64,000 nucleotides of DNA from Myxococcota bacterium (GCA_965247115.1 CBDFGR010000002.1:224001-288000); one strand, 5' to 3'; shown: positions 33,056 through 56,688, counted from the first letter of the stretch. The notes: generated from the sequence alone by a model not told the origin. Numbers and translations: made by a program.

Positions 33056-33073
33056 GTCACCCCCGTCGAAATC

Positions 33074-33469: not shown

Positions 33470-33494
33470 CTCATGCTTCCTTTCAAGAGACGGC

Positions 33495-36020: not shown

Positions 36021-36267
36021 GCCTACGTTCTCCTTCTGGCGCCGGGGCGATCTCGCCCACTACGCGCGGTCTGTTCTGCAGCTGCGTCGTTTCAACGCGC
36101 AGCGAGTTCACGTACTCCTTCAGGTCGCTCACGAGGTACCGGATGCACTGCCGCGATAGCCGGATGAACGGGGGGCCGTGCCGCTTGCGTCGCCACTCCC
36201 ACATTTGCCTCGTAGAGATGCCGAGAAATCGCGCAGCCTCTTCCGTGGTCCACAGCTCGTCTTCCAT
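36013..36267 (-). CDS. AlpA/excisionase-like HTH protein
   Basis: WTTEEAARFLGIS...WR...GPPFIRLS..IRY...DL. Confidence 0.8.
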   Translation of the reverse strand: MEDELWTTEEAARFLGISTRQMWEWRRKRHGPPFIRLSRQCIRYLVSDLKEYVNSLRVETTQLQNRPRVVGEIAPAPEGERRHG

Positions 36268-36279
36268 GCCTTCGTCGTC

Positions 36280-38433: not shown

Positions 38434-38447
38434 GCGCCCTCAGGCTC

Positions 38448-38975
38448 CTACTCCTGCTCCGATGGGACCCGCTGCTGTGGCGGGTCGGTATTCGGAGTGT
38501 CGCCGCCGAACTCTTGGGGACCAGGACGTTCCCGGCCTTCGCCCGTCGGTGGCACCTCGGGGGGATCGCCCACCTCCGGCAGACGATTGGCGGTCGGGTT
38601 CGAAGGATCCTCGGGGTTCGGAGCGGGCGGCGCGACCGCCTTCGATTCATCGGGGACGAGATCTTCGCGGATCCCGCTCGGCAGTTTGTTGAACGCGACG
38701 CGCTCGTAATGGGCTTGGAAGTCCTGGGCCCGTTCGACGAATCGGTGGCTGTCACGGAGATCCTGGCACAGGTAGTCTCCCGTACCTCCGCCCGTCACGT
38801 ATGCGGGACAGATCTGCCCCTTGGCATTGCGGTACTGCCGCTGCCGCACGGTGAAGCCGCCCTCGCCGTACACCTGCTGAGCGCGCACGTACTGCCTGAC
38901 CTTCTTCTTCGGGTCCGGATCCGCGAGCTCGCGGACGTAGAAGTTCGCGTTCTTTGCCTCTTCCATCTCGAGCAT
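38448..38975 (-). CDS. Phage hypothetical protein
   Basis: ORF between terminase and portal with RBS; Pro-rich tail. Confidence 0.55.
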   Translation of the reverse strand: MLEMEEAKNANFYVRELADPDPKKKVRQYVRAQQVYGEGGFTVRQRQYRNAKGQICPAYVTGGGTGDYLCQDLRDSHRFVERAQDFQAHYERVAFNKLPSGIREDLVPDESKAVAPPAPNPEDPSNPTANRLPEVGDPPEVPPTGEGRERPGPQEFGGDTPNTDPPQQRVPSEQE

Positions 38976-38989
38976 CGTTTCTCTCCCTG

Positions 38990-40579: not shown

Positions 40580-40848
40580 GCGGCGCCGCTCACCATCACG
40601 TTGAACGCTGAGGCGCAGTCGAGCGCCTGGTCTAGGTGCGCCTCGGGGTCATCGAAGTCGCGGAAGGTCTCGACGCGGCACATGGCGGGGCGTCGTTCGT
40701 AGATCGCGCACTGGTTCTCCGGCGTCAGCTCGCGGCAGACTCCGTCGCCCCGATCGAACGGGAGGTGGTAGAGGGGCTTGCGACAGCACGCCCCGCAGCC
40801 GATGCACCTCCAGCGGCCATCGTCGTCCAAAAAGTCCTGAGGGCTCAC
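40576..40848 (-). CDS. YkgJ-family CxxCxxCC cysteine-cluster protein
   Basis: CIGCGACC...C...CAIYERRPAMCR. Confidence 0.85.
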   Translation of the reverse strand: MSPQDFLDDDGRWRCIGCGACCRKPLYHLPFDRGDGVCRELTPENQCAIYERRPAMCRVETFRDFDDPEAHLDQALDCASAFNVMVSGAA

Positions 40849-40890
40849 GGGCGTCAGTTCCGAACTTGACTCGGCCGCGGACAGTTGCAG

Positions 40891-41502
40891 TCACGGGTCG
40901 TGAGAACGAAACGATTCGTCTTCTTCTTCATACAGTCCTCGAGGCAGCCATGGCACGCCTGAAGCTTCACCCCGTAGCCGTAGCGAGACAGCTCTCGAAG
41001 ACAAGACAGCCACCGGAACCTGAACCTCCGGGTCAGGATCGCCGGATTGCTCGCACGCGATCGCTGCGTTCGCCCACATGACCTCTTCCCGCACGCACCG
41101 GATCGCAGTAGTGACGTCTGGGCCCGCAGGCGCATGGTCCCGGATGACGCTCGACATCGCGTACCCCGAGCTCCGGATCGCCTCGAAGCGCAGAGCGACG
41201 TTCGGATCCGGATGGTTCTGCGGAGAGTGGTACGTGAACCAGTTCTCCAGGTTCGAATCGGGAACACGGCGACCCCGAGGAGGAGTGCCGCGGGCCGCCG
41301 CCGGGCTGTTCGTGAGCTTCACGCCGCGCGGCAGCTCCACGACGTTGCCATCCGACGCAAGGCACAAGTAGAACTCGATGGTTTCGCGGAGGGCCTGCCC
41401 GCAGTTGTCGTCCGCGGTCGCGGGCGGCTTCCGCTTGATTTCGTCGTAAAGCGGCCGCAGCTGCTCGAGGAGCTCCTGCGGGCTCATTCTCCCATCAGAC
41501 AA
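40891..41502 (-). CDS. Protein with Acb2/Tad1-like helical hairpin domain
   Basis: ENWFTYHSP...FEAIR...AIRCVREEVMWANAAIAC (aa ~85-151). Confidence 0.6.
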   Translation of the reverse strand: MSDGRMSPQELLEQLRPLYDEIKRKPPATADDNCGQALRETIEFYLCLASDGNVVELPRGVKLTNSPAAARGTPPRGRRVPDSNLENWFTYHSPQNHPDPNVALRFEAIRSSGYAMSSVIRDHAPAGPDVTTAIRCVREEVMWANAAIACEQSGDPDPEVQVPVAVLSSRAVSLRLRGEASGVPWLPRGLYEEEDESFRSHDP

Positions 41503-41675
41503 ATCGCACCCCCTTTGGCCGATATCGGTCGCGCGACTGCCGAACTCGGCGCCGCTCCGTCTCGATCTCCGAAACAGACTGACTCCCCGTGCACCATCGG
41601 CAGTCGGCCGCGCCGCCGGTGCGTACCGAGTAGGTCGACTTGCAGAAGTGCGACCGTGCCGTGTACGCCATTCGA

Positions 41676-42110
41676 TCAGTCCGCCGGCGAGATCTTCTCG
41701 ACCTGGTGCTCGTCGATCCAGTCGGCGACGCCACGCAGTACGTCCCGTGTCCCCTTCGGCCCGGCGTCCGACGTGATCTCGACCTTGCCGATACCCTCGA
41801 CACGACCGGTGAACGTCGCACTACCACCGTTCTTGCGCTGGCTGATGGTCAGCTCCATCCGCTGCATCTGCTGGCCGATGATCGGGACGTCCATCAGGCC
41901 GCCTCCCTCTGAGCGTGGCGCCCAACGAATGCTGTGCACTCGGTCGGCCTCCCGGCCAACGTCCTGAAGCGGTTCTACAAGCGGCGCCCCGCACCTCGGG
42001 TTCTCGCACGTAAACGCTCGATGACTCCGATGCGGCACGCAGTTCCGCTCCAGCCAGTCCACGATCGCGGAATCGCTCATCCGAGGCCGTATCCGCGGCT
42101 TCGCCATCAC
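41676..42110 (-). CDS. Phage hypothetical protein(s)
   Basis: ORF in late-gene orientation; internal RBS+ATG suggests possibly two genes. Confidence 0.45.
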   Translation of the reverse strand: MMAKPRIRPRMSDSAIVDWLERNCVPHRSHRAFTCENPRCGAPLVEPLQDVGREADRVHSIRWAPRSEGGGLMDVPIIGQQMQRMELTISQRKNGGSATFTGRVEGIGKVEITSDAGPKGTRDVLRGVADWIDEHQVEKISPAD

Positions 42111-42457
42111 TCCAGCCCCGGGATCCGCGCAGCAGGCGATTCCGCTTCTTCTGGCCCTGTTAGGGTCGAACTTGAACCAGATTCGACCCGCTGCGCAGCC
42201 AACTCTCGAAAGTGCTGCGACAGCAGATCGTCCGCGGTCGGAAGAGACACACGCGGCTCCCGATCCACCTCGACGACATCACGAGAAAAAAATTCGCCCT
42301 CGACTGCGGGAGAAAAATTTCCGGCTCAGGGGAGGACAGGGATTCGGCTTGTGGGTGGGTAGAGGGACCCGCGCTCGCGCTAGCTGGGGCCCCACCTTGC
42401 GCGGCCCCCACCCCCTCCGCTCCGGCCAGCGCTGGGGACCTCTCAGCCTCTGTGACG

Positions 42458-42997
42458 TCACAGCTCTGGGCCGCCGTCCTCGCAAGTATCCGAGATCGCT
42501 TGCGTATAAACGTCGCCCCCCGGATTAGGAATCCGGTGAGCATCGGGAGGGGCATACTCGAGCACGAGTTCACGCGCTACCTCGCGCAGCTTGAGGCGCA
42601 GACCATCGGGCAGCTGCGCGCCGTCGAAGCCGGTGATCGGCTCGGCTGTCGCGTCCGACGGTGAGTACGCTGGCAGCTTGCCCCAGCGGCGCTCGACCAG
42701 GTAGATAGCGCACTTACGCGCATCGGTGAGAGTCGGCCACAGCAGTTTGCGCCGCTTCCGGCCCTTGCGATCGCTGTACGTGAGCACGATGCCCTCGCCG
42801 CGCGAGATGCGTTCGAGCATGGCCAGTTGCTCGCGTGCGTCGCCGATCACGCTCTTGACGAGCGCCAGCGCGCCCTTGCGCCGTCCACCGCGCGGATTGC
42901 CGCTTTCTCCAGGCTTGAACTGGTGCGGCCGCAGGTTGGCCATGCTGCGCTCGTTGGCAGCGACCTTCTCGGTGAGGTTTACAGCGCTTTCGTCCAT
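42458..42997 (-). CDS. Putative terminase small subunit (DUF5681-type)
   Basis: ANLRPHQFKPGESGNPRGG; C-terminal YLVERRWGK. Confidence 0.65.
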   Translation of the reverse strand: MDESAVNLTEKVAANERSMANLRPHQFKPGESGNPRGGRRKGALALVKSVIGDAREQLAMLERISRGEGIVLTYSDRKGRKRRKLLWPTLTDARKCAIYLVERRWGKLPAYSPSDATAEPITGFDGAQLPDGLRLKLREVARELVLEYAPPDAHRIPNPGGDVYTQAISDTCEDGGPEL

Positions 42998-43185
42998 CGG
43001 AGCGACTACTGCCCTCAGCAGTGGGCTGGTTACATGCAAGCCCGTCTCTTCTCGGATGACAAGGGGGATGAGGCTCGAGGGTTACGGTGTTCGCTGGTGT
43101 GCGACGGGGATCGACGCGCGTAAGACGTGAGTGTGGGTTGGGCCGGAGACTCGGAGGGGAGAGGGAAGAGCGTCGGCGAGGGCGG

Positions 43186-43467
43186 GTGACGTCGGATCGT
43201 CCGAGGGCTGAGGTGCTGTCGAATCTGCGCGCGCTGCGGGAGGAGCGAGGGCTCTCGATGGCGGCGGTGTCGCGTCTCGCGTGGCTGAGCTATGAGACGG
43301 TGCAGCGGGTGGAGCTTGGGCAGGTGCTGGCGATGCAGGTGAGCACGCTGGTGCGGGTGGTGGCGGCGGCGCTGCGGTGCAAGCCGGTGGACATCGTGCC
43401 GGGGTTGGGGGCGGTACCTCGGGTGTTGGAGCCTCCGAAGGTACGGCAGCGGCGGCGTGGTCTCTAG
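43186..43467 (+). CDS. XRE-family HTH protein
   Basis: NLRALREERGLSMAAVSRLA..SYETVQRVELG. Confidence 0.65.
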   Translation: MTSDRPRAEVLSNLRALREERGLSMAAVSRLAWLSYETVQRVELGQVLAMQVSTLVRVVAAALRCKPVDIVPGLGAVPRVLEPPKVRQRRRGL

Positions 43468-45322
43468 GCGGTGGGGCTGGCTCTCGCAACTTCGGGTGGA
43501 ACTCGAGGGGTCGGAGCCCAACTGAGCCGGACCGCTCTTACGGTCTCTGGGGGTCCGCCGGGTGTAGACATACCTGTAGCCTTGTTCGGGCGCGGGGCGG
43601 ATTGGGAGAGATTGCGGGCAGCTATGTCGTGGGATCGGATGCGCTTGAGCGTCGGCCAGTTACGGCACCCCTGCGCCTTGCGGCGCTTCTGAACCTTCGC
43701 TCTTGCGCGATCGGGCCCGAGGCGGCAGCGGCTCTTTGGCGTGGTCCGGGCTTGAGTGAGCCGCGTTCCCGGTCCATAGCGTGCCTGCTCGGGGAGTTCA
43801 CGGGATGACCTGGCGTGGGAGGTCTCCCGGTTGGGTCACCGGCACCCGCGCCGGCCTGATCCATCATCGGAGCTTGTTCGCCTTCCGCCCGTGTTGCTGC
43901 ACGGCTCGCACCGTCCGCCCATCGGGTCGGAACCAGAGAGTCACGCGGACGAGCTGGCCGTGGATCTCGCGCCAGACCGTCCTTTCTCGAGGCCGTCTTG
44001 TCCTCTTCCCCCACGGCGGGGAAGGCTAGCGCGCCTGGCGCTTCGCTGCTCGGCCGAGCGTGCGCCGGGACTTCTGGCGCTTCGCCGCCCGGAGAAGCAC
44101 TCGCCGGACCCACGCGGAGAGGCTGAAGCCGGCGCGGTCGGCAGCCTGGTGGTCGCGCGTCACGCTCCTCAGCGCGTCGTGGGGATCAGCTATCGAGGCG
44201 GTCACGTGCCTGCCCTTCCGGCAGGGCCGAGGCGGCCCGGTGATCGAGCTTCGCTGCACTCTTCGCCATTCCGCATAGTTAGCCGACATATGGAAATATA
44301 TCGATCTCGTGGTACACCAGGGCTGGAAAGGCTTTCGCTCGGTCATCTCCATGGAATGCCTTAGTATGCTAGGTATACAGAAACGGAGCATTCCAGTGAG
44401 CGCTGCATACGAGAAGATCACCGACAAGACGGGCTACTCACTCAGCGTCGGTTCGTTCGTTCGCGCCGATAAGATACCGGGCACCCGATCGCATGTGAAG
44501 CGGGAGGATCGAGCGCCTTGAGGGCAACGTCGTCTGGATCCGGGTAGAGCGGGGCGGAGCTGCGCCCCTTCCAGCCGGAGCGCTCTCGAAGTGCTCACGA
44601 TGAGCGCCAGAAAGACGAAGCGGCCGCTCTGGGCGCGCAGTGCTCGCTCGAGATGCTGTGTTCTCGCAAAAGCCGAGGGCACGACGATGACGACGGCGCT
44701 AGCGCCGGACTGGCTAGGGTCGGAGAGCACACCCTCCCGGCTCCCGAAGGGGCGGCTCCACAAGGTCGAATGAGCGACGGCTGCGGCTACGTCGCAGACG
44801 CGTGACCGCGAAATGGCTCGACAGCTATGGCGCGCCGCTATGCCCCTGCGACCGGAGAGCCAATGCGCGACTGTCGGCCGCTCGAGCTGCTCCCGCGTGA
44901 GGCGTTTGGCCCCGAAAATACAGAAGGGGCTCTCGTGGGGGAGGCGCTCTACGTGACGCTGCGTCCGCGAAGCTTACTGCGGATTCTGCGATCGGTTTCA
45001 CGAGCGCGGGGACGTCATGGTCGTCCCGCGCTTCCGGTTGGGTAGGCGTGGGGGTGCTCCTGAAGGGCGCTATTGCGTGGACTGCTCGGCGGGGATCGAG
45101 CGCGAGGCGAGCGGGATCGTTCCGCGTGGTTGGCCGAGCGTCTCGGGGTTCGATTCGACCAGGGCGCAACGCGCGCCGCAGAACTTCCACCGCCGGCGCT
45201 GGGCGCTGTACCGATGAGCTGCCCGCGCTATCACTGCCCCCCCCCACGCGGCCGCCTTCCGGCGGTCTGGCGGCACGGTGTGAGTGCGGGCGAAAGCTCG
45301 CACACGAACCACACCGGTTGCT

Positions 45323-45649
45323 CTAGCCATCGCCGTACCACGAGGCGAAGTCGTCGAGCCGAATACACACAATCGCGTCGCTCAAGCGATGGCTCTTCCG
45401 CTTGAGCACCGCCAGCGGGAGCTTGGATCCGTTCCGGTCTGACTGTCGAGCTTGATCCAGCGCGTCGATCGAGTCGGCCCAGTGCACGACCTTGCGTAGC
45501 TTGCACTCGATCGCGAAGGCGTCGTGCACGACATCGTCTCTCCCGCCGTCCTTGCTTCCGTAGTCGGGTCCGCGACGATGGCCGCCGAGCTTCTTGGCGA
45601 CGTAGCGCTCGAACTTCTTCCAAGCCGGGTTAGTCGCGCCCATCGCCAC
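45323..45649 (-). CDS. Holliday junction resolvase-like PD-(D/E)XK nuclease
   Basis: WKKFERYVA...DDV...AIECK. Confidence 0.75.
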   Translation of the reverse strand: MAMGATNPAWKKFERYVAKKLGGHRRGPDYGSKDGGRDDVVHDAFAIECKLRKVVHWADSIDALDQARQSDRNGSKLPLAVLKRKSHRLSDAIVCIRLDDFASWYGDG

Positions 45650-45763
45650 GTAAGCTCAGGGCTCTTGCACTCGGGGAAGGCGAGGAGGACGGTGATTCTT
45701 CGGCGCGCTGCCCCCCAGGATGGCGCGGGGTCCGAGTATTTCTCACCGTCCTCCTCATAAGGT

Positions 45764-46177
45764 TCACGGCAGCGCCTTCGCCCACTCGGGCGTGTACCCG
45801 CGCGCGTATGGATGGTCGCTCCGTTCCGGAGCAAGACGCTTCGTCTTGCTCGCAAGCGGTGACGGGGGCGGTGGTGAGGGATGCATCCGCGCGACCTGTT
45901 GCTGGATGTGCTCTCGGATCGGCTCGGCGATGAGCGCGAGCTCAACGGGCGTTGCTGGGCGACCATCTACGGTTACCTTGCGCTTCCGCCAGTCGATCAT
46001 GGCCGAGCCGAGCGGCAGCAAGTCCTTCCGTGGCGTCGGTCTGCTCGACGCGTTTTGCGTGAACACGATCCGAACGACATCGAGCCTTGCCCCGCTCGCG
46101 ATCTTCCCCCAGTGCTGAAGCACGAGCTCCTTGTCCGGTAGACGGAGCATCACGTGGGCCAGGTGCATCCCGCTCAT
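45764..46177 (-). CDS. Phage hypothetical protein
   Basis: ATGA-coupled ORF in the early/middle operon. Confidence 0.5.
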   Translation of the reverse strand: MSGMHLAHVMLRLPDKELVLQHWGKIASGARLDVVRIVFTQNASSRPTPRKDLLPLGSAMIDWRKRKVTVDGRPATPVELALIAEPIREHIQQQVARMHPSPPPPSPLASKTKRLAPERSDHPYARGYTPEWAKALP

Positions 46178-46491
46178 TCGCGGTTGACGACGGCGCGCTG
46201 CTTCAGGAAGTCTACCGCCCATTTCGGGCACGGCTCCCACTTCTCGGGCGACGAGAGGAACGGCCCCCCGGCGCCCTCGGGCGGGACGACGCCGAGCAGG
46301 CCGTCGCCGACGACGCCGACCGTGTAGCAGAGCACGACGTTCGCTCGCTGCGGTGGCTCCTTCAGCTTGACCTTCTGGCCCTCCTTGAAGTCGGCTGCAT
46401 ATGCCAAGTTCACGACGAGCAAGGCGATGAAGGTCGCGGCGATCGCGAGTAGCACGCTGCGCCAGATCCCATCGAGTAGCTCCTCTTTCAC
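46174..46491 (-). CDS. Hypothetical membrane/exported protein
   Basis: N-terminal hydrophobic helix; coupled to neighbours. Confidence 0.55.
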   Translation of the reverse strand: MKEELLDGIWRSVLLAIAATFIALLVVNLAYAADFKEGQKVKLKEPPQRANVVLCYTVGVVGDGLLGVVPPEGAGGPFLSSPEKWEPCPKWAVDFLKQRAVVNRE

Positions 46492-46793
46492 GACTCATCC
46501 TCCTCCACGCTCGCACCCTGGAACAGCGCGAGCTGCCGCCCGACGTGGTGAAGCTTGATCTCCACGTCGTCGATCGGTTTCGTCTCAAGTTGGATCGACA
46601 CCTTCGAGAACTTGATCGTTACGCCAAGCTCACCTGTGTCCGGGTCCGTCTTGAAGATGCACTTCGGCTTGAACTCGGCGGCGGCCTTGCCGCCCTTGAT
46701 CGAGTCCGAGATCAACGGAAGCTCGGGCAGGAGCTTCGTGTAGATCTCCCCCGAGACCCTTACCGCGAGCTCCTCATGGTGTTTCTGTTGCAC
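46488..46793 (-). CDS. Phage hypothetical protein
   Basis: Coupled ORF with RBS. Confidence 0.55.
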   Translation of the reverse strand: MQQKHHEELAVRVSGEIYTKLLPELPLISDSIKGGKAAAEFKPKCIFKTDPDTGELGVTIKFSKVSIQLETKPIDDVEIKLHHVGRQLALFQGASVEEDES

Positions 46794-47022
46794 TACTGCG
46801 CTCCTCCTTCTGTACCGAGCGGATCGCCCGCTCGATGGCTTCCTCGTACTCGCGCTGAAGCAGTCCGCGCGCGAGCTGGCTGTGACAACCGAACAGGTTC
46901 TGCCGCGTGCGGTACACCTCAGACGCGACCATCATCGGGACCTGGTCCAAGTGGACATCGCACATGACGACGATGGGATTCCGTGGTGCTCGCTGGCAAC
47001 CCGCTACGCGACACACGCTCAT
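46774..47022 (-). CDS. Small Cys/His phage protein
   Basis: CRVAGC...MCDVH. Confidence 0.5.
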   Translation of the reverse strand: MSVCRVAGCQRAPRNPIVVMCDVHLDQVPMMVASEVYRTRQNLFGCHSQLARGLLQREYEEAIERAIRSVQKEERSSATETP

Positions 47023-47136
47023 AGCAGCCTCGGCTGGTGCGGATCGCTGGATCGAGCTTCGCGCGTCCTCTCTCGATCGTTCATCTCTCTGGGCTCATCC
47101 AACGTCTTAGCCTTAGCCACTGCATTCCCCCCTGAA

Positions 47137-47772
47137 TCAGAGCGTCATTTGCTCTGCTGCTGCTGGCTTTGCGGTCTTTGGCGAATCGAAGCCCAGCGAG
47201 CAGACGTGCCGCTCCCAGACCTCGAGGACATTCATGGGTTGGCGTGTAGTACCGACCAGCATCCATCGTTGCTGATACTGCGGGAGCCACGGGATCTCGC
47301 CGACGGCCTTCTTCGGTGCATAGTGCGCGTGCATCCCGTTCCCGCGCGCGACGACATCCCGGAGCAACGCCCGGTCTCTCTCATCGTCGGTGTAGCGGAG
47401 ACCCTCCGTCGTCGCGATCAAGGATCGAAAACGGTCCTCGACCTGCTCGTACCAGCGATAGAACTGGCTCTTACTCGTGGTGCCGGCGCCGTGGACTCCG
47501 TCGTGCTTCGCGATCGCAAACGCGTAGGCATCGTTGGGGAACGGCTTAAGCATCGGCTGGTCCCGCAGCTCGATGCGTGCAGCGAGCCGTAGGTGCTCGA
47601 GCTCGTAGCCTTCTCGATCCAGCTCCCCTGATCGCAACGCGCGCTCGATGTGCACGAGCTCCTTACGGGTCTCGCGGTGCTGCACGCAACGCGCCATCAT
47701 CGTCCAGCGAGCCTCATCCGGAGCCTTCGCGTCGCTGCTCGACTTCGCGCTTGTACTCGCTGACTCGGTCAT
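47137..47772 (-). CDS. Phage hypothetical protein downstream of the replication initiator
   Basis: 211 aa ORF overlapping the rep 3' end. Confidence 0.55.
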   Translation of the reverse strand: MTESASTSAKSSSDAKAPDEARWTMMARCVQHRETRKELVHIERALRSGELDREGYELEHLRLAARIELRDQPMLKPFPNDAYAFAIAKHDGVHGAGTTSKSQFYRWYEQVEDRFRSLIATTEGLRYTDDERDRALLRDVVARGNGMHAHYAPKKAVGEIPWLPQYQQRWMLVGTTRQPMNVLEVWERHVCSLGFDSPKTAKPAAAEQMTL

Positions 47773-48775
47773 CGGTGATCCCCTCAGGTCCTGGCGCCTT
47801 CCTCGAGGCCTCCAGGTACGTATCCACCTTGGCGTCGCGGAACGGTGCATCGAAGGTCAGTGCCTCGCGCGCGTTGAAGTCCCGCGTCACCTTGTCGATC
47901 CCTCCCCAGCTCGCGACACAGCCCCGGACGAGCTCCGAAAGCTGGTCTGGCTTCAGGTCTCGGTTGTGGCGCAGGAAGCGGCCGAGCAGCGCGCGGCGCC
48001 GCGCCGTCACCTCGTAGCGCTTGCCGAACGACGCGAAGGCCTTCTCGATCTCCGGGATCGCGGCCTCGAGCAGCGGATCCGGGGCCCGGTTGCTGCGACC
48101 GTTCGGTTTCCTTTCGAGCCCGGGCAGGCCGGGCGGAGCCCGTGGGGTGTGTGTGTCTTGAGAAAGCGATGGATCAGAGTTCAGAGGCTCGGCTTGGCTA
48201 GGCATGGCATGGCTTGGCATGGTGGTGCGCACAGATGGGTCGTTTGTGCGCACGGACGCTCCTTTTGTGCGCATACCTGCGCTCGCCGTGCGCATAAAGC
48301 CATCGTCTGTGCGCTCGCCGTGCGCATCCATGCGCTCACGCGCGGCGTAGAGCTTCTCGATCTCGGCCCTCTCCGCCTTCGAGACCCGAGTCAGACGAGG
48401 CCGAGAGCCGTCCGCGAAGTAGAGGACGGCGCGGCCGAGCCGCATGTGCACCGAGTCCTCGCAGTGCTCGGACCAGTCATGGAGAAGGAGGCAGTCGCCG
48501 ATCTCGTCAAGCCAGGCGGCTTCGCGGAGTGCCTCCAGGAGCGCGTCGGGTGCGCCGTCCCAGCCGCAGCCATCGGCGATGTCGTCCGGGTCGGTCTTTG
48601 AGAGATCTCCTTCCGGCGCGTAGCGCGCGGAGTACTCCCAGAGCCGCTGCATCAACCCGACGGCGTAGTTGTGCGCGATGGCGAAGCCGACGCCGAGCTC
48701 GGGGCCGAGGAGACGCGCGAGCTTCCGCATCTTCGGGTGCGCCGGCGTGCCTTGCTTCAACCTCTCGCCCCCCAT
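47714..48775 (-). CDS. Phage replication initiator protein
   Basis: HPKMRKLARLLG...AVGLMQRLW...GDL...HDW N-terminal domain; internal iteron array. Confidence 0.75.
   Translation of the reverse strand: MGGERLKQGTPAHPKMRKLARLLGPELGVGFAIAHNYAVGLMQRLWEYSARYAPEGDLSKTDPDDIADGCGWDGAPDALLEALREAAWLDEIGDCLLLHDWSEHCEDSVHMRLGRAVLYFADGSRPRLTRVSKAERAEIEKLYAARERMDAHGERTDDGFMRTASAGMRTKGASVRTNDPSVRTTMPSHAMPSQAEPLNSDPSLSQDTHTPRAPPGLPGLERKPNGRSNRAPDPLLEAAIPEIEKAFASFGKRYEVTARRRALLGRFLRHNRDLKPDQLSELVRGCVASWGGIDKVTRDFNAREALTFDAPFRDAKVDTYLEASRKAPGPEGITDDRVSEYKREVEQRREGSG
48186..48337. repeat. Putative replication origin: seven GGCWH pentamers plus eight phased TGCGC repeats
   Basis: TGCGC starts at 48226, 48247, 48268, 48278, 48289, 48310, 48321, 48331. 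Confidence 0.65.
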
Positions 48776-48960
48776 GGGCTAGTGCGGTGGTGCTGCTATC
48801 TCCCTGCGAACCGGATGCCCGGGGTAGCCGCGTGTACCCGGGGGCAAGCGGAGAGATCTAACGACGCGTGCGAGGTGCCGTCGCGACCTGCGAGAATTGC
48901 TTTCCCCCGCCGCTCGCAGCCGTGTAGGCTTCCCCACAGCGACCCCGACTCCGGGGCGGA

Positions 48961-49368
48961 ATGGAAATGACGTTGCTGCGAGCGCTGGCCGGCCTCCTCG
49001 TGATCTGGACGCTCGTGGCGTACTCCTGCGAGAGACTCGTCGGTCCCACGCCGCTCTCGCGGGTCATGACGTGGCGCCAGGAATCCTCGGATTTCGCCGC
49101 GCTTCGGCGCGCGGTCCTGTTTCGGGCAGAACGGTGTATCGAGGAGGCCCAGTTTACTTCGGAGCAGGTGTGGATGCTGTGTGAGCACGCTCGCGCGGAC
49201 CTCATGATTTACAGCACGTCGATAATGGTTGAGCGAGACGCCCGGGCTCGAAAGGATGGGTCGCGATGCGACCGATCGAGATGCGGTCGACTCGAAATCT
49301 GCATGGAGGCGATCGGCAGCCGTGCGAGTTTCGCCGAGCAGTACACCTGCAAGGACCTCCGTCGGTGA
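48961..49368 (+). CDS. Cys-rich exported/membrane hypothetical protein (moron-like)
   Basis: N-terminal hydrophobic segment, several Cys, opposite strand to neighbours. Confidence 0.45.
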   Translation: MEMTLLRALAGLLVIWTLVAYSCERLVGPTPLSRVMTWRQESSDFAALRRAVLFRAERCIEEAQFTSEQVWMLCEHARADLMIYSTSIMVERDARARKDGSRCDRSRCGRLEICMEAIGSRASFAEQYTCKDLRR

Positions 49369-49769
49369 CAACCGTGCATCCGCAAGAAAAGTTGACACCG
49401 CGCCCACGGACTCAGTAGAAAGATCCGCGCGACACTTGTGGGGCGGTGAATACGGAGCGGTGGATGGAGTGCTTGTCACGCCGCGCCTTCGTCCGCGCAG
49501 TTCGCACCGGAGTCGTCGAACTCGCCGAAGACAAGATCGACGGCCTTGATCTCGCCGTTCGAGTCAGCGATCGGCAGGCTCATCTTCACGCTGGGAGTCG
49601 CGTCGCATGTGCTCGGGCGCGAGGTTCGGAATATCGCGGCGGTCTCGCGTGCCGCACATAGACTCGGCAAGATGAAACTCACCGATGACTGAGCGAGCCC
49701 CTCTTGGATCGAACTGTACCGTCCCGATATCCGGAGGTGGATCGAGTCCCTTGGGCACCTGGAGTGACC

Positions 49770-50000
49770 TCACGCGGCTCCCTCTGTGGCGGGTTCGGCG
49801 GCGCTTACGCGGCGTCGCGCGGGAAAGTGGTCCTCTGGCCGGACTTTTCCTCCGGTGGCTGACGTGATTCGGGCCCAAACCCGACCCCGAACGTCGCCTC
49901 CGTTGCAGACCCTGGAGACAGCGCTCTGGTAAATCCCAGAGCGCTTTGCAAAGGCGATCTGAGTCTCGTCTCGCTCAAATAGGTATTGCTCGAGCCGCAT
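49770..50000 (-). CDS. Cro-like HTH protein
   Basis: MRLEQYL...TQIAFAKRSGIYQSAVSRV...ITSATGGKV; divergent from the repressor. Confidence 0.8.
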   Translation of the reverse strand: MRLEQYLFERDETQIAFAKRSGIYQSAVSRVCNGGDVRGRVWARITSATGGKVRPEDHFPARRRVSAAEPATEGAA

Positions 50001-50015
50001 CGGGAAGAGAGTTAT

Positions 50016-50070
50016 CCTTATTTGGCTCAAGCGTCCATCTTTATTTGGCTGGACCTCCGCTATCCAAATC
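50016..50070. promoter_or_regulatory. Putative repressor operators (TTATTTGGCT x2, TATCCAAAT)
   Basis: Repeats at 50018-27, 50041-50 and 50061-69 in the cro/cI gap; same motif as an IR at 50704-50736. Confidence 0.6.
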
Positions 50071-50108
50071 GGGATTCCCGCATTAACCTTTGAGGTCGGG
50101 AGGTTTCG

Positions 50109-50696
50109 ATGACTAAGCGGGGGAAATACGTGCCGTGGAAGCCGCGTCGCGTAGAGTTCGAGATGACCACGGGGAAACGAGCTGGCAACTCTTTGGAGGA
50201 CGTTCTCCGGGATCTAGTCGTCAAGGCGCGCGACGATCTGGGGATGAACCAGAAGGACTTTGCGAAGAATCTCGGGATCAGTCAGTCGGCCTTGAGCAGA
50301 TTCGAGAGCGATGCGCCGAACCAGTCGGGGAATTCTGAGCAGCTCAAATCGTCCGCGTTAACGAGGATTTGCGTTCTTCTCGATGAGAATCCTGTGAACT
50401 TTCTCATCGAACACCCACTGTACGACGGCGCGACGCGTGCCCGCATGACGTTTCCAAAGGACCATCTATACCGCCGCTACAACGCCCAGCTCAAAAACGC
50501 CGAAGCGCTGGGACTGCTTCCAAATCTCAAGCGGGCAAAGGACTTGGGAGTGTTCGAACAGGCGGTCGCTGCCGTCGCCAATGTCGTCGAGGCGGCGGAG
50601 GAATCCCGCGCCACTATGCCACCACTACAGCCACGCCCGGGTCCGCGTGATTCCCATCGTTCACCTAGATCGTCCCAAACTCGCCGATCCTCTTAG
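50109..50696 (+). CDS. CI-like repressor (XRE HTH, no S24 peptidase domain seen)
   Basis: ARDDLGMNQKDFAKNLGISQSALSRFE. Confidence 0.75.
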   Translation: MTKRGKYVPWKPRRVEFEMTTGKRAGNSLEDVLRDLVVKARDDLGMNQKDFAKNLGISQSALSRFESDAPNQSGNSEQLKSSALTRICVLLDENPVNFLIEHPLYDGATRARMTFPKDHLYRRYNAQLKNAEALGLLPNLKRAKDLGVFEQAVAAVANVVEAAEESRATMPPLQPRPGPRDSHRSPRSSQTRRSS

Positions 50697-50703
50697 GTCA
50701 ATT

Positions 50704-50736
50704 CCTAATTTGGGTTGAATCGATATCCAAATAAGG
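50704..50736. promoter_or_regulatory. Putative operator CCTAATTTGG-N13-CCAAATAAGG
   Basis: Imperfect IR in the AT-rich gap before the early operon. Confidence 0.55.
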
Positions 50737-50773
50737 TTACATTTGACCTCCGTCACCTACGACGGAGGCCTCG

Positions 50774-51583
50774 ATGCCCGATCCCGCCCCTTCCCCTCCC
50801 GACCCGAGGCATCCTCTCCCCGACCGTCTCGCCCAGCTGGACTCCCTGCACCTGAACACAGGTGCCTCCTCAAGCTTCGACGAAGGCCACTGCGCGCTCG
50901 AGGTGGTCGCCTGGCTCGCAGGGGAGGAGCACAGCGACCATCCGCAGTGCACGAGTGCCGTGGTCGGAGACTTCGTCCGCTGCTGGAATGACAACCTTTT
51001 AGACGAGGATCGAGACCGTCTGCTCAAGCCCCTGCTCCCCCGCCTCGTGGGATCGGAAGGAGATCCCGACACGGAGCTCGCCCGCTCCTACCTAGCCCTC
51101 GACTGGCTCTGCCGGGTCCATACGCCCGCATGGCTGGATCTCGTGGAGAGTCTGAGCCCGCATGCCGCGAAGCTGCGCGGACTCGGCGAGATCACGGACC
51201 TCGTTCGTGCAAGCGCGGCGCAGCCGATGATCCGTGCTGCGAGGGACGCTGCGGGGGACGCTGCGAGGGACGCTGTGGGGGCCGCTGCGGGGGACGCTGC
51301 GAGGGACGCTGTGGGGGCCGCTGCGGGGGCCGCTGCGAGGGTCGCTGCGTGGGACGCTGTGGGGGCCGCTGCGGGGGCCGCTGCGAGGGTCGCTGCGGGA
51401 GCCGCTGTGGGGGCCGCTGCGGGGGACGCTGCGAGGGTCGCTGCGGGAGCCGCGGCGGGGGCCGATGCGAGGGTCACCGCGTGGGACGCTGCGAGTGCCG
51501 CGCTCGAGCCGACCGTGCTCACGCTCCAGGATTCGGCACGCGATCTCGTTTGTCGAATGCTCGCGGTGGGGGAGTCCGCATGA
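50774..51583 (+). CDS. Phage Ala-rich repeat protein
   Basis: CALEVVAWLAGEEHSDHPQC, WND; about 20 four-residue xxAA repeats. Confidence 0.75.
   Translation: MPDPAPSPPDPRHPLPDRLAQLDSLHLNTGASSSFDEGHCALEVVAWLAGEEHSDHPQCTSAVVGDFVRCWNDNLLDEDRDRLLKPLLPRLVGSEGDPDTELARSYLALDWLCRVHTPAWLDLVESLSPHAAKLRGLGEITDLVRASAAQPMIRAARDAAGDAARDAVGAAAGDAARDAVGAAAGAAARVAAWDAVGAAAGAAARVAAGAAVGAAAGDAARVAAGAAAGADARVTAWDAASAALEPTVLTLQDSARDLVCRMLAVGESA
51237..51500 (+). repeat. Degenerate 12-bp tandem repeats (GGGNCGCTGYGN)
   Basis: Visible tandem array coding RDAA/GAAA/RVAA. Confidence 0.85.
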
Positions 51584-52482
51584 CTCCCTCCTCCCCTCTC
51601 CGCAGCGATCTGAAGAGATGGGCGAGAGAGTCGAAGCCAGGCGTCTACCGTGGCCTCTCCGAGACCGAGTACGACGCGATCGACGCGGTCCGCAGCACGA
51701 AGCTCAGCTACTTCGCCGACGGTAGGACGCCCGCGCACGCGAAGTACCTGATCGACCACCCTCCGCCCCCGAAGGATCACCTCGACATCGGCGCCGCTCT
51801 GCACTGCGCCGTGCTCGAGCCGGAGAAGTTCGACGACGAGTGGGTCGTCGCTCCTAAGGTCGACCGCCGCTACAAGAAGGACAAGGCCATCTGGGCCGAG
51901 TTCGAGGCGGAGAACGCGGGCAAGGGGATTCTGAAGCGCCAGGACATGAACCTGGTCTTGGCGATGCGCGACGGGGTCAACCGGAACGAGCTCGCGCGCC
52001 GGCTGCTGAAGGGGGCGGGGCAGAACGAGCTCACGCTTGTTTGGGAGGACGAGCAGTCGGGTCTGCTTTGCAAGGCGAGACTCGACCGGATCACGGAGTA
52101 CGAGGGCTACGTCATCGTCGTCGACCTGAAGACGACGGCGCGGCTCGCTTCCAAGGAAGCGTTCGCGCGAGCGATGGGAGACTTCGGCTACCACCGTCAG
52201 GAGGCGTTCTACCGGATGGCGATGGACGCGCATTTCGGCGAGATGCCGCGTCGGTTCGTCTTCATCGTGATCGAGAAGGCGGCTCCGCACATCGTCGCGA
52301 CGCATGAGACCGGGCCGGAGTCTCTCGATGCGGGTCAGCGTGAAGTGCGCACGCATCTGACGGAGTACGCCGCGTGTACGGAGTCGGGCGTCTGGCCTGG
52401 ATACGGAACGTCGACGCTACTGACCGAGCTGCCACCGTGGCGGCTGCGACGAGTCGAAAGAGACGAAGAGGTCGTGTTTTGA
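51580..52482 (+). CDS. RecE / exonuclease VIII-like PD-(D/E)XK nuclease
   Basis: GAALHCAVLEP, CKARLD, VDLKTT, YHRQEAFY, FVFIVIEK. Confidence 0.9.
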   Translation: MTPSSPLRSDLKRWARESKPGVYRGLSETEYDAIDAVRSTKLSYFADGRTPAHAKYLIDHPPPPKDHLDIGAALHCAVLEPEKFDDEWVVAPKVDRRYKKDKAIWAEFEAENAGKGILKRQDMNLVLAMRDGVNRNELARRLLKGAGQNELTLVWEDEQSGLLCKARLDRITEYEGYVIVVDLKTTARLASKEAFARAMGDFGYHRQEAFYRMAMDAHFGEMPRRFVFIVIEKAAPHIVATHETGPESLDAGQREVRTHLTEYAACTESGVWPGYGTSTLLTELPPWRLRRVERDEEVVF

Positions 52483-53555
52483 ACTGCAAGAGCTGCAACG
52501 CCCCGGAGGGCTCCCCGCACGGAACAAACTGCAAGGTTCACCCTCCGGGCTCCAGCGAAGAGAAGCCCGAGATGGAGGAGCAACGCGGGGTCGCCACGAT
52601 CGACGATTCCACTGGGGCGATCGCGGACATGAGCGAGGGCGGGCTGCGTCCGACCAACGCAAAGGAGCTCGCCGCGCTCGCGAAGCAGGCGGCCCTCTCG
52701 AGCCTGGTTCCCGAGCCCTTCCGCAACAAGCCGAACGACTGCTTCGTCGCGATGGCGATGGGGAGAGAGATCGGCTTCGACGCGTTCCAGAGCTTGCAGA
52801 TGTTTCACGTCGTCAAGGGGAAGGTAGGTCTTCCCGGCGAGGCGATGGTGGCGATCATCCGGAGTCGCGAAGAGTGCGAGTCGCTCAGGATGGGCACCGA
52901 GGGGTCGCTCGAGGATGGAAACCTTACGGGGTGGGTCGTCTCAAAGCGGCGCGGTCAATCTGAGAACGACAAGGTGACCTTCAGTCTAGAGGACGCGATG
53001 CTGGCTGGGCTCTACCCCGGCAAGAAGGATCGCAACGGCGAGCCGAGCGTCTGGTCAAAGTACCCGAAGGACATGCTCATCTGGAAGGCCGTAGCGCGCG
53101 ACTGCCGACGGAACTGGGCCGACATGACCCGGCGTGTTCCCGTCGCTGAGGACATGCCCGGCTACGGCGAGTCAAGGCTTGAGATCAACGTCACACCGCC
53201 GCGCGAGGAGACTCCGACGGCGGACCCGGCTCGTGCACTCTTCGCGGGTGAGTCGATCGAGCCTGAGATCGTCGGACCCGAGGGGCCCGGCGGTCCCGCT
53301 GCACCGAACGCAGAGCCTGCGAACGCCGGGACGCCCTCTGACGATGCGAATGCAACGGGTCGCCCGGCTCCGAGTGAGGGATCCAGTGAGGCCACGCCGG
53401 AGCCGGGACTTCCCAACGAGGACGGCCCGAAGTTCTCGGCGCTACCCGAGGACTTCGACCCGAGTCGCGACAACTGCCCCGACTGCGAGCGCACGGCTGA
53501 TCTCGGTCACAACCCGGGGTGCTCCATCGCGAAGCTGCTGAAGGAGCAGAGGTGA
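52479..53555 (+). CDS. RecT-like ssDNA annealing protein
   Basis: SSLVPEPFRNKPND, GREIG, WSKYPKDMLIWKA; follows RecE. Confidence 0.8.
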   Translation: MNCKSCNAPEGSPHGTNCKVHPPGSSEEKPEMEEQRGVATIDDSTGAIADMSEGGLRPTNAKELAALAKQAALSSLVPEPFRNKPNDCFVAMAMGREIGFDAFQSLQMFHVVKGKVGLPGEAMVAIIRSREECESLRMGTEGSLEDGNLTGWVVSKRRGQSENDKVTFSLEDAMLAGLYPGKKDRNGEPSVWSKYPKDMLIWKAVARDCRRNWADMTRRVPVAEDMPGYGESRLEINVTPPREETPTADPARALFAGESIEPEIVGPEGPGGPAAPNAEPANAGTPSDDANATGRPAPSEGSSEATPEPGLPNEDGPKFSALPEDFDPSRDNCPDCERTADLGHNPGCSIAKLLKEQR

Positions 53556-53815
53556 CACGAACCACCGACCAAGAGTTGGTCGACCGCGTCCCCTGTGAGG
53601 GCTCCGAGGACTGCGAGCAACTGGTCGATCGCGACGGCTTCCGTCTCTGCGCCGAGCATATGAAGGAGGCATGGGACGGGATGGAGGAAGCGGAGAACAC
53701 GCCTCCGTCTCGCAGACCGAGGCGAAGAGATGGCAACTGAGCCGACGGCTCGACTTGCCATGATCTGCGGTGTGGTCTGGTATGGTGCGATCCAGCTTGT
53801 GGGAACGCTCGTGCC

Positions 53816-54073
53816 ATGAAGGACCCGTGCTGGAGTCTCGATCAGTGTGCAGAGTTCCTTCAGTGCAGCACCAAGACCGTGCGAAAGATGATGAGGGGCG
53901 GATTCCCGCACTTCTACGTGGGCCGGAGACCTCGGTTCCGTCCGGAGGCGGTAAGGGAGTGGGTGCATGAGCAAGAACGGAGTCGCCCCCATAGCCTCAC
54001 CGTCGCTGCGGATCGAATCCGGGAGTCCCGTGTCCAGGAGCGCATCCTGAGAAGAGCCGCCCGTGTCTCGTAA
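53816..54073 (+). CDS. Excisionase-like HTH
   Basis: WSLDQCAEFLQCSTKTVRK...VGRRPRF; overlaps the integrase start. Confidence 0.78.
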   Translation: MKDPCWSLDQCAEFLQCSTKTVRKMMRGGFPHFYVGRRPRFRPEAVREWVHEQERSRPHSLTVAADRIRESRVQERILRRAARVS

Positions 54074-55412
54074 GGCAGACGGCCCTCGAATCTTCAAGCG
54101 TGGCGCGCACTACTACGTGGAGTACGTAGAAGGCAACGAGATACTCATCCCCCGTCAGTCCCTCCGGACCAAAGACGCCGGGAAAGCAAGGGCCGCTGCG
54201 TCGAGGCTCATCCTGGAGTATGAAGAGCGCGGCTACACACCAGAGGGTGACGAGCTCCTCTTCCGAGACGCAGCCGCCGCCTACCTCAAGCACGGGATGT
54301 CGAACCTGGCAGGTACAACGCAGGATGACCACAGAAATCATCTCCGTCTTGGCGGAATGCTGGACCGGGCTTTTGGCGACATCCCGATATCTCAACTCAC
54401 GGATGAGTCGCTACTCCGGTGGTGGGAAGAGAGCATCGAGGGGAAGCGAGCGACAAGTACGGGACGGCGATATCTCGATAGCGTCTCGGCAATTATGCGC
54501 CGAGCCCGTCGTCACCGGCTCATCGTGCACAATCCCGTCGTAGACTTTCAGGCCATTATCCGGGAGGAGAACAAGACCAAGAAGGGCAGAGCTCTAAGTG
54601 AGGCGGGGAAGCATGTCCGGCCTATTGAGGACCCCGCGGAAATCGAACGCATCCTTGCTTCGGCCCGAGAGGAGAGTCTAGAAGATCACGTGCTGGTGCT
54701 GCTCATGCTCGACGCTGGACTGCGCATCGGAGAAGCCATGCAGATCCGCTGGCGGGCAGTCAACTGGGGAGAGGACGAGAACGACCTAGGCCGCAGCCTC
54801 GAGATCTCGGAGTCGAACCCCAGAGGCATGTACCCCGGTGATCCACCCAAGAGTGGGAGGACGCGCTATGTGGATCTCTCCAGGCGGCTACGACGGGTCC
54901 TGATGGAGCTCTACACACAAGAGTTCCGGCCCAGCCCGGATCGTGTCATTGTGCCGCGCGACCAGGGCAACTGGAGGCAGAGGCAGTGGCGCAGAATCCT
55001 GGCGCGTGCCGGGACCACTCGAGCGTGGCGACCGAAAGATCTGCGCGACACCTTCGCGAGCCAGCTGCTCTCGAATGGTCAGGAGCTCGTGCACATCGCC
55101 GACCAGCTGGGCCATTCGTCCGTGGGCGTGACGGAGCGTCACTACACCAAGTACATCCGTCGCAAGAGGTATCAGCCGACACCGCCACTAGCCTATGGCG
55201 AGCTCCCGACGGACGCGCTGGCTCGGCTTGGCGCGCCCAATAAACGTCCACAAAGCGGACACTCGGGGTTTTCAGACCAACACGCTCCTGGCGACAGTGC
55301 AGAAACTGTTAGCAATGTCGCGGGCTTCCGTGGTGAGCGCGGCCGGGATCGAACCGGCGACCGGCGGATTCGGAGTCCGCAAGGATCAGGTCTCGCAGCG
55401 TCCGGTCCTTGA
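54063..55412 (+). CDS. Tyrosine integrase (prophage form; ORF crosses the right att core)
   Basis: AGLRIGE, PKSG, KDLRDTFAS, LGHSS, HY catalytic set. Confidence 0.93.
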   Translation: MSRKADGPRIFKRGAHYYVEYVEGNEILIPRQSLRTKDAGKARAAASRLILEYEERGYTPEGDELLFRDAAAAYLKHGMSNLAGTTQDDHRNHLRLGGMLDRAFGDIPISQLTDESLLRWWEESIEGKRATSTGRRYLDSVSAIMRRARRHRLIVHNPVVDFQAIIREENKTKKGRALSEAGKHVRPIEDPAEIERILASAREESLEDHVLVLLMLDAGLRIGEAMQIRWRAVNWGEDENDLGRSLEISESNPRGMYPGDPPKSGRTRYVDLSRRLRRVLMELYTQEFRPSPDRVIVPRDQGNWRQRQWRRILARAGTTRAWRPKDLRDTFASQLLSNGQELVHIADQLGHSSVGVTERHYTKYIRRKRYQPTPPLAYGELPTDALARLGAPNKRPQSGHSGFSDQHAPGDSAETVSNVAGFRGERGRDRTGDRRIRSPQGSGLAASGP

Positions 55413-56688
55413 GGCGCTCCGCGACGGCGCGGCCGATCGACGCCAGGACATCGTCGACGCCGGAAGACGCCGGCAAGCGCCGCGGGCCCTGCAGGGTCCT
55501 GTTCCCTTCGCGTCTGACGGCATCGAGAATCTGCGCGACGTCGACGAGCTCGGGCGCCCGACCGGGCATGTACGAGAGCTCGGGACCTGCGGCGTTGAGC
55601 AGCAGCCCGTGTCGCTCGAGCGACAGCAGGACGTCTTCTACCAGATCGATCGAGATCCCGCTCCAGCGTGCCAGAGCCCGCAGCGTCTCCGGCGCGCCGC
55701 CGGCAAAGTGCGCTCGACCGATCCGGGTCATCAGCAGCAGCGCCAGCTTCTCCCGGTCCTGGCCCGACAGGAGCCGAGCTTCTCCCTCGGGAGTGAGCTG
55801 CTCGGGGTACTGTACGTAGAAGGCGAGACGCGCCCCGATCAGCAGGATGAGCCAGCTCACGTAGAGCCACATGAGGAACAGGATCAGCACGGCGAAGCCG
55901 GAGTAGATGGCCGTGTAACGCGTGGATGACGCGACCACAGTCGCAAAGCCGAAGCCCAGGCCCTCCCAGAGAGCTCCGGCAACCACGCCGCCGATCAGCG
56001 CCGCACGCAGCTGCACCTTCGCATTCGGCACGAACGCGTACACGAACGTGAACGCCGCGATTACCAAAAGATAAGGAACGAGCTCTCTCACCATATCGAC
56101 GGCGCTGCCGAGCGCCTGTACTTCCGTGAGGCGCTGAACGGCGGAGGCGCCCGCAAGCGAGGCCGTGAGTCCGATCGCCGAGAACATCAGCACGGGACCT
56201 ACCATCACGACGGAGAGGTAGTTGCTGAAGCGCTGACCCAGGCTGCGACTCTGACGCGTGTGCCACGCGTAGTTGAACGAGCCCTCGATCTTTTGAATCA
56301 GGGAGATAACCGTGTAGAGCAGCATGGCAAGGCCGAGAGAGCCCAGGATGCCGACGCGCATGTTGTCGACGAAGCCGATCACGTTCTGGCTGATGTCTGC
56401 GCCTCTCTCGCCGAGGGGCGCGAGAAAGCGCAGCAGGAGTGGCTCGATCTGGTTGTGCACGCCGAAGCCTTTGAGCACGGAGAAGCTCAGCGCAAGCAGC
56501 GGGACGAGCGAGAGCAGGCTCGTATAGACGAGACTCATGGCGTGGAGGGTCAGCTGGCCCTCTCGAATATCCACGACGAGCGCGTATACCGTGCGCAGCG
56601 CCCGCATTCCCAGGGCACTCAGCGCGGGCCGTCCGGCGAGATCTACGCGCCAGATCGCGCGCTCGATGACGTCACCCAGGCCCCTCAT
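55309..56688 (-). CDS. yihY: YihY/BrkB family membrane protein with C-terminal Rrf2-like HTH; last 18 aa phage-derived
   Basis: LVYTSLLSLVPLLA, IEGSFNYAW, YAFVPN, IYSGFA, WLYVSWLILLIGA. Confidence 0.85.
   Translation of the reverse strand: MRGLGDVIERAIWRVDLAGRPALSALGMRALRTVYALVVDIREGQLTLHAMSLVYTSLLSLVPLLALSFSVLKGFGVHNQIEPLLLRFLAPLGERGADISQNVIGFVDNMRVGILGSLGLAMLLYTVISLIQKIEGSFNYAWHTRQSRSLGQRFSNYLSVVMVGPVLMFSAIGLTASLAGASAVQRLTEVQALGSAVDMVRELVPYLLVIAAFTFVYAFVPNAKVQLRAALIGGVVAGALWEGLGFGFATVVASSTRYTAIYSGFAVLILFLMWLYVSWLILLIGARLAFYVQYPEQLTPEGEARLLSGQDREKLALLLMTRIGRAHFAGGAPETLRALARWSGISIDLVEDVLLSLERHGLLLNAAGPELSYMPGRAPELVDVAQILDAVRREGNRTLQGPRRLPASSGVDDVLASIGRAVAERLKDRTLRDLILADSESAGRRFDPGRAHHGSPRHC
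55331..55375 (-). tRNA. 3' half of tRNA-Arg(CCG) carried by phage attP (fragment only)
   Basis: CTCCGAA loop, TCCGC, CGGTC, GCCGG-TTCGATC-CCGGC T-arm, CGCGCTC-A-CCA; no D-arm or 5' acceptor strand upstream. Confidence 0.85.

Follow-up and report, generated by a model that had tools for sequence, protein, structure and literature searches.

We found that a prophage lying in the yihY gene of a Myxococcota bacterium is very probably the product of secondary-site integration by a phage that targets a tRNA gene, namely tRNA-Lys(CTT). We give an even chance to the further reading that a heritable change of two bases in the attP overlap moved the lineage from tRNA-Lys to protein genes, and that the new address was used twice. 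On that reading, the tRNA half still carried by the prophage would be a relic, and ancestor and descendants, their integrases a few residues apart, would stand together in one chromosome. How integrases acquire new sites is an old question, and the secondary-site step has been seen mainly in the laboratory and in Sa3int phages; if true, target switching of this kind would show how tRNA-targeting integrases give rise to integrases that target protein genes.

The yihY prophage and its integrase

The window is a 64,000-nucleotide stretch of contig C2 (G000:C2:224001-288000) from a 5.17-Mb, 98% complete assembly of three contigs, C1 to C3; positions given below without a contig name are those of the window. 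The prophage (11403..55375, no strand assigned) comprises 43,973 bp between two copies of a core repeat. According to Pfam and PHROGs, it encodes an integrase, an excisionase-like protein, a RecT-like protein, a PD-(D/E)XK protein and an HTH repressor-like protein, together with a terminase, a P22-like portal, a capsid and several DNA methylases. The head module is on the minus strand (33495..40579), with the capsid at 33495-34556, the portal at 36280-38433 and the terminase large subunit at 38990-40579. On the plus strand, an 85-aa excisionase-like HTH protein (53816..54073; phrog_66, E 5.2e-09) is encoded immediately upstream of the 449-aa tyrosine integrase (54063..55412; PF00589, E 3.5e-20; PF22022), in whose sequence we recognised R221, K325-x-x-R328, H351 and Y361. 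The PF00589 match and the accompanying terminase, portal, capsid and excisionase-like genes mark this as a phage genome with a tyrosine integrase gene at one of its ends.

The left part of the prophage (13357-21850) holds at least four DNA methylase genes, two of the N6/N4 type, one Dam-like and one C5, as well as a methylase-associated gene. Near the terminase, the stretch 40891-41502 encodes sequence that weakly resembles the Acb2/Tad1 hairpin domain (E 2e-4, under the cut-off) and is a possible candidate for an anti-defence sponge protein.

The integrase frame crosses the att core at codons 436-438, 75 codons beyond the catalytic Tyr361, and its tail varies by site: the protein has 449 aa at yihY, 463 aa at tRNA-Lys, 472 and 424 aa at the Rhs site described below, and 492 aa in the computed excised form. 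In the Rhs gene, translation of the integrase continues in frame into the final Rhs codons. A suicidal integrase of the SSV type, in which integration splits the gene into inactive halves because att lies within it (PMC8371274), was considered and rejected, since the att core lies 75 codons past Tyr361 and only the tail changes.

The tRNA fragment and the attachment junctions

The minus strand from 55375 to 55331 reads as the 3' half of a tRNA, from the anticodon loop to CCA, and no 5' half adjoins it, in agreement with the original prediction; ARAGORN at its default settings reports 0 tRNAs in the window. The prediction had assigned this fragment to tRNA-Arg(CCG). Between the 3' stem arm and CCA, however, all its 38 nt (55331..55368, minus strand) are identical, 38/38, to the host tRNA-Lys(CTT) gene (C3:2634119-2634194; stem arms GCGGA/TCCGC, loop CTCTTAA). 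The host tRNA-Arg(CCG), located at C3:c954056-954133, differs in its 3' half, and a duplicated 3' end of its own belongs to a separate element. An element targeting tRNA-Arg(CCG) was rejected on these grounds. Both stem arms at the junction match tRNA-Lys, and the loop differs only at positions 4-5, CTCCGAA in place of CTCTTAA (55371-55372). What looked like a CCG anticodon belongs to the coding sequence of yihY; the junction is real and its tRNA was misnamed. This serves as a warning for annotation, as a tRNA fragment at a prophage end can display a false anticodon taken from host DNA, and tools that detect split tRNAs will miss or misname elements like this one.

An 11-bp direct repeat marks both prophage ends and spans a predicted 7-bp overlap, CTCCGAA. 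At the integrase-side junction (attL type; repeat at 55365..55375, overlap at 55369-55375, minus strand), the overlap is preceded by the host left arm GCGGA (55376..55380, minus strand), which equals the 5' anticodon-stem arm of both tRNA-Lys(CTT) and tRNA-Phe(GAA), and it is followed by the phage-borne tRNA-Lys half, now translated as the new YihY tail. The far junction (attR type; repeat at 11392..11402, minus strand) consists of a phage arm, then CTCCGAA (11396-11402), then yihY. The identity between left and right ends starts exactly at the first loop base, both at yihY and at tRNA-Lys, which supports the predicted crossover at the anticodon-loop position. An integrase-catalysed exchange at the yihY site is the most likely origin of these ends, judging by their sequence. 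A candidate arm-type site on the integrase side (55243..55254, plus strand) has a 9-bp core in common with a tandem 12-bp direct repeat (11484..11507, plus strand) of further candidate arm-type sites within the far phage arm. The far phage arm is nearly identical to the arm of the tRNA-Lys element.

The target gene and its empty allele

Rejoining the host flanks gives the empty site GCGGA-CTCCGAA-TCCGA, which encodes ADSES, as had been reconstructed. The occupied yihY gene, of the YihY/BrkB family, encodes 459 aa (55309..56688, minus strand), the last 18 of them phage-derived, and the rejoined frame encodes 473 aa; therefore 32 C-terminal residues were replaced by 18, also as predicted. The displaced 3' end of yihY (11294..11391, minus strand) remains colinear with a second genome of the same genus, G002, for 42 nt past the junction. 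In the rejoined gene its stop overlaps by 11 nt the start of a downstream gene for an ATP-dependent DNA ligase (Pfam; 9754..11304, minus strand).

G002 carries an uninterrupted yihY orthologue, 85% identical over 1355 nt and colinear across the site, which there reads GCGGA-CTCCAAC-CCGGA, without a dyad. The expectation of an uninterrupted yihY next to the ligase in relatives held for yihY and not for the adjacency: in G002, the match among the five genomes searched (1/5), a ligase remnant lies 1.6 kb on, followed by the same downstream gene, so that synteny is kept but adjacency is not. This ligase copy of G002 is internally deleted. The ligase gene of the window has an in-frame TAG (10675-10677) two codons ahead of the KxDG lysine, which reflects either decay or a sequencing error, and a second ligase of the genome, 50% identical, is found at C3:1151727-1153217.

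Run contigs were compared from four samples (X1, X5, X8 and X10, of 10 runs listed). Contigs from X10 (2437 nt) and X1 (345 nt) match yihY up to precisely 55365, the final base common to the empty and occupied forms, and then diverge from the window, the listed differences all being outside the core (11/11 and 2/2). From this we infer that both alleles are empty and carry CTCCGAA natively. The yihY contig of X5 also ends at 55365, which hints that the empty and the occupied states are both present in that sample. In X8, tRNA-Lys is intact, the integrase has no cover, and the yihY contig ends at 55379.

The BrkB domain (43-293) and the Rrf2-like domain (315-435) of YihY are intact by Pfam, and four family-level orthologues end near the insertion point. 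Since the conserved domains end upstream of the insertion, YihY probably tolerates it. Gene-switch prophages, such as SPbeta in spsM, disable their target upon insertion and recur at that gene across strains. We rejected such a switch here because both YihY domains are intact, four orthologues end near this place and other samples appear empty.

Related elements at tRNA-Lys and in an Rhs gene

The genome holds four near-identical integrases (98.75-100% at the amino acid level) at three kinds of site. A sibling element whose integrase is 98.75% identical occupies the tRNA-Lys(CTT) gene itself, and the predicted secondary-site integration of a tRNA-targeting phage is supported by this close relationship and by the colinear empty allele of G002. 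The overlap of the tRNA-Lys element is CTCTTAA at both ends (C3:2634150 and C3:2564498), compared with CTCCGAA at both ends of the yihY prophage; its two ends are 70 kb apart and face opposite ways. The uninterrupted yihY target matches the primary tRNA-Lys site at 14/17 bases.

A second off-target junction, consisting of a host flank, GCGGA-CTCCGAA and the tRNA half, was found at C1:1359 and C3:5983. An uninterrupted, 95%-identical paralogue of the flank, at C3:678.48 kb, reads CCGGA-CTCCGAA-TGAGT and sits in the C-terminal part of an 1874-aa Rhs frame, so CTCCGAA is native there, and it is found at the one assembled end of the Rhs-site element. The far end of this element, sought in the assembly by its arm and by the Rhs flank, was not found; the C1 element's far end is a different tRNA-like repeat. 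The flank gave no junction-spanning match in three genomes searched. Neither copy of the junction is more than 6 kb from a contig end. The two have a common 1350-nt flank, and over 5054 nt the C3 copy matches the yihY prophage without a difference. As the C3 copy may be an assembly duplicate, the two copies were counted as one site.

The C1 element is distinct from the yihY prophage, with its own changes at most 250 nt from the junction and unlike sequence past 4.5 kb. The two are sisters over 4.4 kb: among 4288 ungapped columns, 112 group them against the tRNA-Lys element, 11 group C1 with Lys, three group yihY with Lys, and at two all differ. Later recombination could have shuffled the arms, because the genome's prophages have been rearranged or misjoined. 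Three residues (A155V, V385A and I412S) distinguish the integrase of the yihY copy from the C1 form; of these, A155V lies in the central domain and is possibly a first adjustment. At these three positions, and at three Lys-specific positions, the C1 integrase agrees with P0086, a 96% identical protein from another assembly.

Other observations concern these two loci. A second tRNA-Lys 5' half, with a decayed arm and loop (GGGGA-CTCTCAA), lies 1.5 kb upstream of the whole gene (L004:7593-7635; C3:2632593), and the interval contains a short-chain dehydrogenase gene and an apparent C-terminal integrase remnant; tRNA-Lys seems to be occupied from two sides. The 1874-aa Rhs-repeat frame (L067:4376-10000; C3:678376 and upstream, minus strand) has a C-terminal part with an HTHP motif and is followed by a small secreted-looking gene, a toxin-immunity-like layout, and related Rhs elements at C3:2.35-2.40 Mb end differently.

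Overlap, left arm and dyad at used and unused sites

It had been predicted that the empty site forms a stem around the 7-nt loop, and that the dyad-symmetric core alone is enough for this integrase. A dyad is present, but it is of only 4 bp, and 265 such 4-bp dyads occur genome-wide. The occupied junction, on which folding was computed, folds no better than shuffled sequence (z -0.17; 76/200 shuffles fold equally well). Perfect 5-bp dyads of this kind number 34 in the genome, most of them without this phage, compared with three loci in use. They include tRNA-Phe(GAA), whose 5+5 stem arms are the same as those of tRNA-Lys and which has no copy of this integrase. Nor need the second site have a dyad, because its uninterrupted paralogue is nearly without one; the right arm of the occupied Rhs copy is absent from the assembly, and the lack of a dyad was read from the paralogue. 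The sufficiency of the dyad does not survive these observations, and stem-loop mimicry was rejected as a sufficient cause.

Used and unused sites are separated by the identity of the overlap together with the left arm, and not by the stem, as far as the sequences tell. Both off-target sites match the tRNA loop at CTC and AA, and each other at all seven bases. By arm match, the yihY site is the best of 799 CTCCGAA sites in the genome (9/10, the next best having 7), although its three mismatches to the tRNA-Lys site in 17 positions are equalled by nine unoccupied sites. The used off-target sites are two of the three native GCGGA-CTCCGAA sites (2/3), the third being at C3:629862.

The probability that a second site has the same overlap by chance depends on what the integrase demands. 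It is 2/517 (0.4%) if the left arm and CTC suffice, 2/64 if the last A is also required, and 21-25% if AA is required (2/8, or 25/120 when one arm mismatch is allowed). In the last case the candidate pool comprises nine sites, or 121 if a single mismatch in the arms is tolerated. The chance counts leave out the C3 duplicate, the two far-end copies and the tRNA-Lys site.

A putative overwritten and reused attP

We lean slightly towards a history in which the attP overlap of the yihY lineage was overwritten from CTCTTAA to CTCCGAA and then reused. A phage of the tRNA-Lys type would have integrated, perhaps while tRNA-Lys was occupied, at a site offering the left arm, CTC and AA with two central mismatches; repair or conversion would have left host bases at both ends; and excision would have yielded a CTCCGAA attP that still bore the now useless tRNA-Lys half. 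Such an attP could then integrate at a second site that matches it perfectly in all 7 bases, and it would steer the phage to other CTCCGAA sites, for example that in the Rhs gene. Either the yihY site or the Rhs site, where the sister element sits, may have come first. The address is likely to have changed before the protein, because the integrase has barely changed, with three residues separating it from the C1 form.

Several observations bear on these steps. A mismatched 7-bp region that goes unrepaired gives unlike left and right ends, according to the ICEBs1 report (PMC3715440), and in Sa3int phages mismatched integration gave attL different from attR, with identical host-type ends taken as the sign of an adapted attP (PMC8649754). 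The yihY prophage has the host overlap at both ends, unlike the phage overlap at tRNA-Lys. The host has MutS-family genes (three matches over the cut-off), and the phage has the RecT-like gene. A candidate case of reuse of the changed overlap is the Rhs site, which has all seven bases, at a chance of 0.4-25% and with one end assembled; against reuse, chance sharing would be expected once in four or five cases if AA is required. No excised attP was seen.

The same sites could have been reached by two independent off-target insertions of an unchanged tRNA-Lys phage, its integrase needing the left arm, CTC and terminal AA while tolerating two central mismatches, with repair supplying the host bases. 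The shared CG would then be chance and no lineage would have been retargeted. We regard this as possible, though rather doubtful. It gains from the fact that 3/9 candidate sites (or 26/121) read CTCCGAA when AA is required, from the MutS-family and RecT-like genes, and from lambda, where first-strand exchange hinges on the initial 3 bp of the overlap (PMC2297512). It has to assume two rare mismatched events with host bases at 3/3 visible ends and the same two bases twice, in elements that are sisters, and random libraries of mv4 returned only identical overlaps (bioRxiv 10.1101/2023.11.06.565760). A single off-target insertion, at yihY or at Rhs, with the other junction made by an integrase-driven or homologous rearrangement of prophage ends, or by assembly, appears improbable. 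The missing far end of the Rhs-site element, the junctions near contig ends, the C3 copy that equals the yihY prophage over 5054 nt, the inverted tRNA-Lys ends and the many common prophage modules all speak for it. The C1 element is however a distinct phage, the join falls exactly on the Rhs paralogue's own CTCCGAA, a place that an assembler would not pick, and a rearrangement made by the integrase would itself require the CTCCGAA overlap.

That the yihY junction is a misassembled tRNA-Lys prophage is very unlikely, even though near-identical prophage parts are many and contigs break inside them: a single uninterrupted yihY frame accommodates both ends, the two bases that set them apart from the tRNA-Lys ends are the same at each, and the locus is internal to a 2.2-Mb contig. 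We give least credence of all to a tRNA-Arg(CCG) phage that uses a stem-loop mimic in which the dyad is sufficient. The occupied junction does present a 5-bp stem and a 7-nt loop with CCG, and relaxed ARAGORN names it tRNA-Arg(ccg), but the fragment is that of tRNA-Lys, the 34 perfect-arm sites with tRNA-Phe among them contrast with three used loci, and the Rhs paralogue and the yihY of G002 both lack the dyad.

Comparison with known systems

Off-target integration followed by attP adaptation is already known from Sa3int phages and lambda, and the present example would be a natural case leading from a tRNA to protein genes. Rutkai et al., in 2003 and 2006, reportedly obtained lambda at secondary sites, found the attP overlap substituted after excision, and proposed this as the first step in a change of specificity; the first three overlap bases are said to have been conserved. 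Those lambda experiments used laboratory selection with the primary site removed and a non-tRNA target, whereas ours is a natural case with an almost unchanged integrase.

Close parallels concern Sa3int phi13 of Staphylococcus aureus (PMC8649754), where a tyrosine integrase likewise acts off target, host bases enter the phage site, and identical host-type attL and attR mark an adapted attP. For these phages the same report gives measured improvement of integration in the next round, and adapted ends also in natural isolates (PMC8649754). In the cases it describes, the mutated protein gene hlb, with a core of 14 bp, serves as the primary site, whereas here the primary site is an intact, occupied tRNA gene; here, moreover, 2/7 overlap bases changed, the tRNA half was kept and both forms are present in one assembly. 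Adaptation was measured there and is inferred here.

ICEBs1 (PMC3715440) has as primary site a 17-bp tRNA segment of 5-bp arms and a 7-bp spacer, and resembles the present element in combining a tRNA primary site with secondary sites in protein genes that have 2-3 mismatches. With mismatched spacers its ends differ, it excises poorly and it goes back to the primary site, whereas the yihY ends agree, which would remove the excision penalty. Helper-embedded PICI integrases also show natural off-target copies nearly identical to on-target ones (PMC10111431); these are satellites aimed at prophage late genes, and overlap substitution or reuse is not described in the part of that report that is accessible. 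The accessible main texts searched held no phage that targets a tRNA and sits, with its overlap substituted, at two sites in protein genes next to an ancestral copy. The genome is a ready test set, with one integrase in three forms, two attP overlaps and three used sites, and with clean unused controls in tRNA-Phe (identical arms) and C2:1186695 (perfect arms, one base off).

Prophage background and integrase relatives

The genome is heavily lysogenised: at least twelve tRNAs, and tmRNA as well, have a duplicated 3' end. Its prophage modules are mosaic and 85-100% identical between elements, element ends are swapped or inverted, and every open contig end falls in a prophage. Relaxed ARAGORN across the genome returned noise only. 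A 29-bp tRNA-like 3' end occurs as inverted repeat copies at C1:41864-41892 and C1:279037-279065; it may come from an interrupted tRNA-Leu(TAA), because ARAGORN lists no such tRNA in the genome. An attP-like join at L005:9480-9850 (C3:1041.5-1041.85 kb) combines a phage arm 80-93% like the far arm of the yihY prophage, CTGAAAA, a tRNA-Phe 3' half and an unrelated integrase (about 30%). As the stem arms of tRNA-Phe and tRNA-Lys are the same, this join may be a hybrid or may record an older switch between Lys and Phe.

Among 151 genomes of the class, 32 have a relative of the integrase at E 1e-30 or better, and none outside this genome exceeds about 50% identity. No relatives were found in viral contigs, and 7996 scored candidates yielded 82 proteins, none of which exceeded 52% outside the integrase's own cluster. 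The tRNA half of 38 nt matched nothing in viral contigs (0) or in metagenome contigs (0); its one match in genome contigs, L053, is a whole tRNA-Lys with CTCTTAA. There is accordingly no independent case, since the genomes, viral contigs and metagenome contigs searched held no other genome with an integrase above about 50%.

As the site lies inside the integrase frame, the overlap can be read from protein tails. The tails of P0086 and of P0004 (50% identical) fit a translation of the Lys-type loop, which makes CTCTTAA look ancestral. Judged from protein alone, the flanks of both are not a tRNA 5' half, and P0086 may represent an attP or an off-target end that retained phage bases. For 25 of 43 listed matches to related integrases of the class (38-48% identical), the loci were examined, and a clear tRNA 3' end lies nearby at 16 of the 24 in other genomes, the tRNAs being of the His, Leu, Met, Arg, Lys, Gly and Ala kinds. 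Many integrase homologues have tails that are antisense translations of tRNAs, and such tails offer a cheap readout of target sites from protein data.
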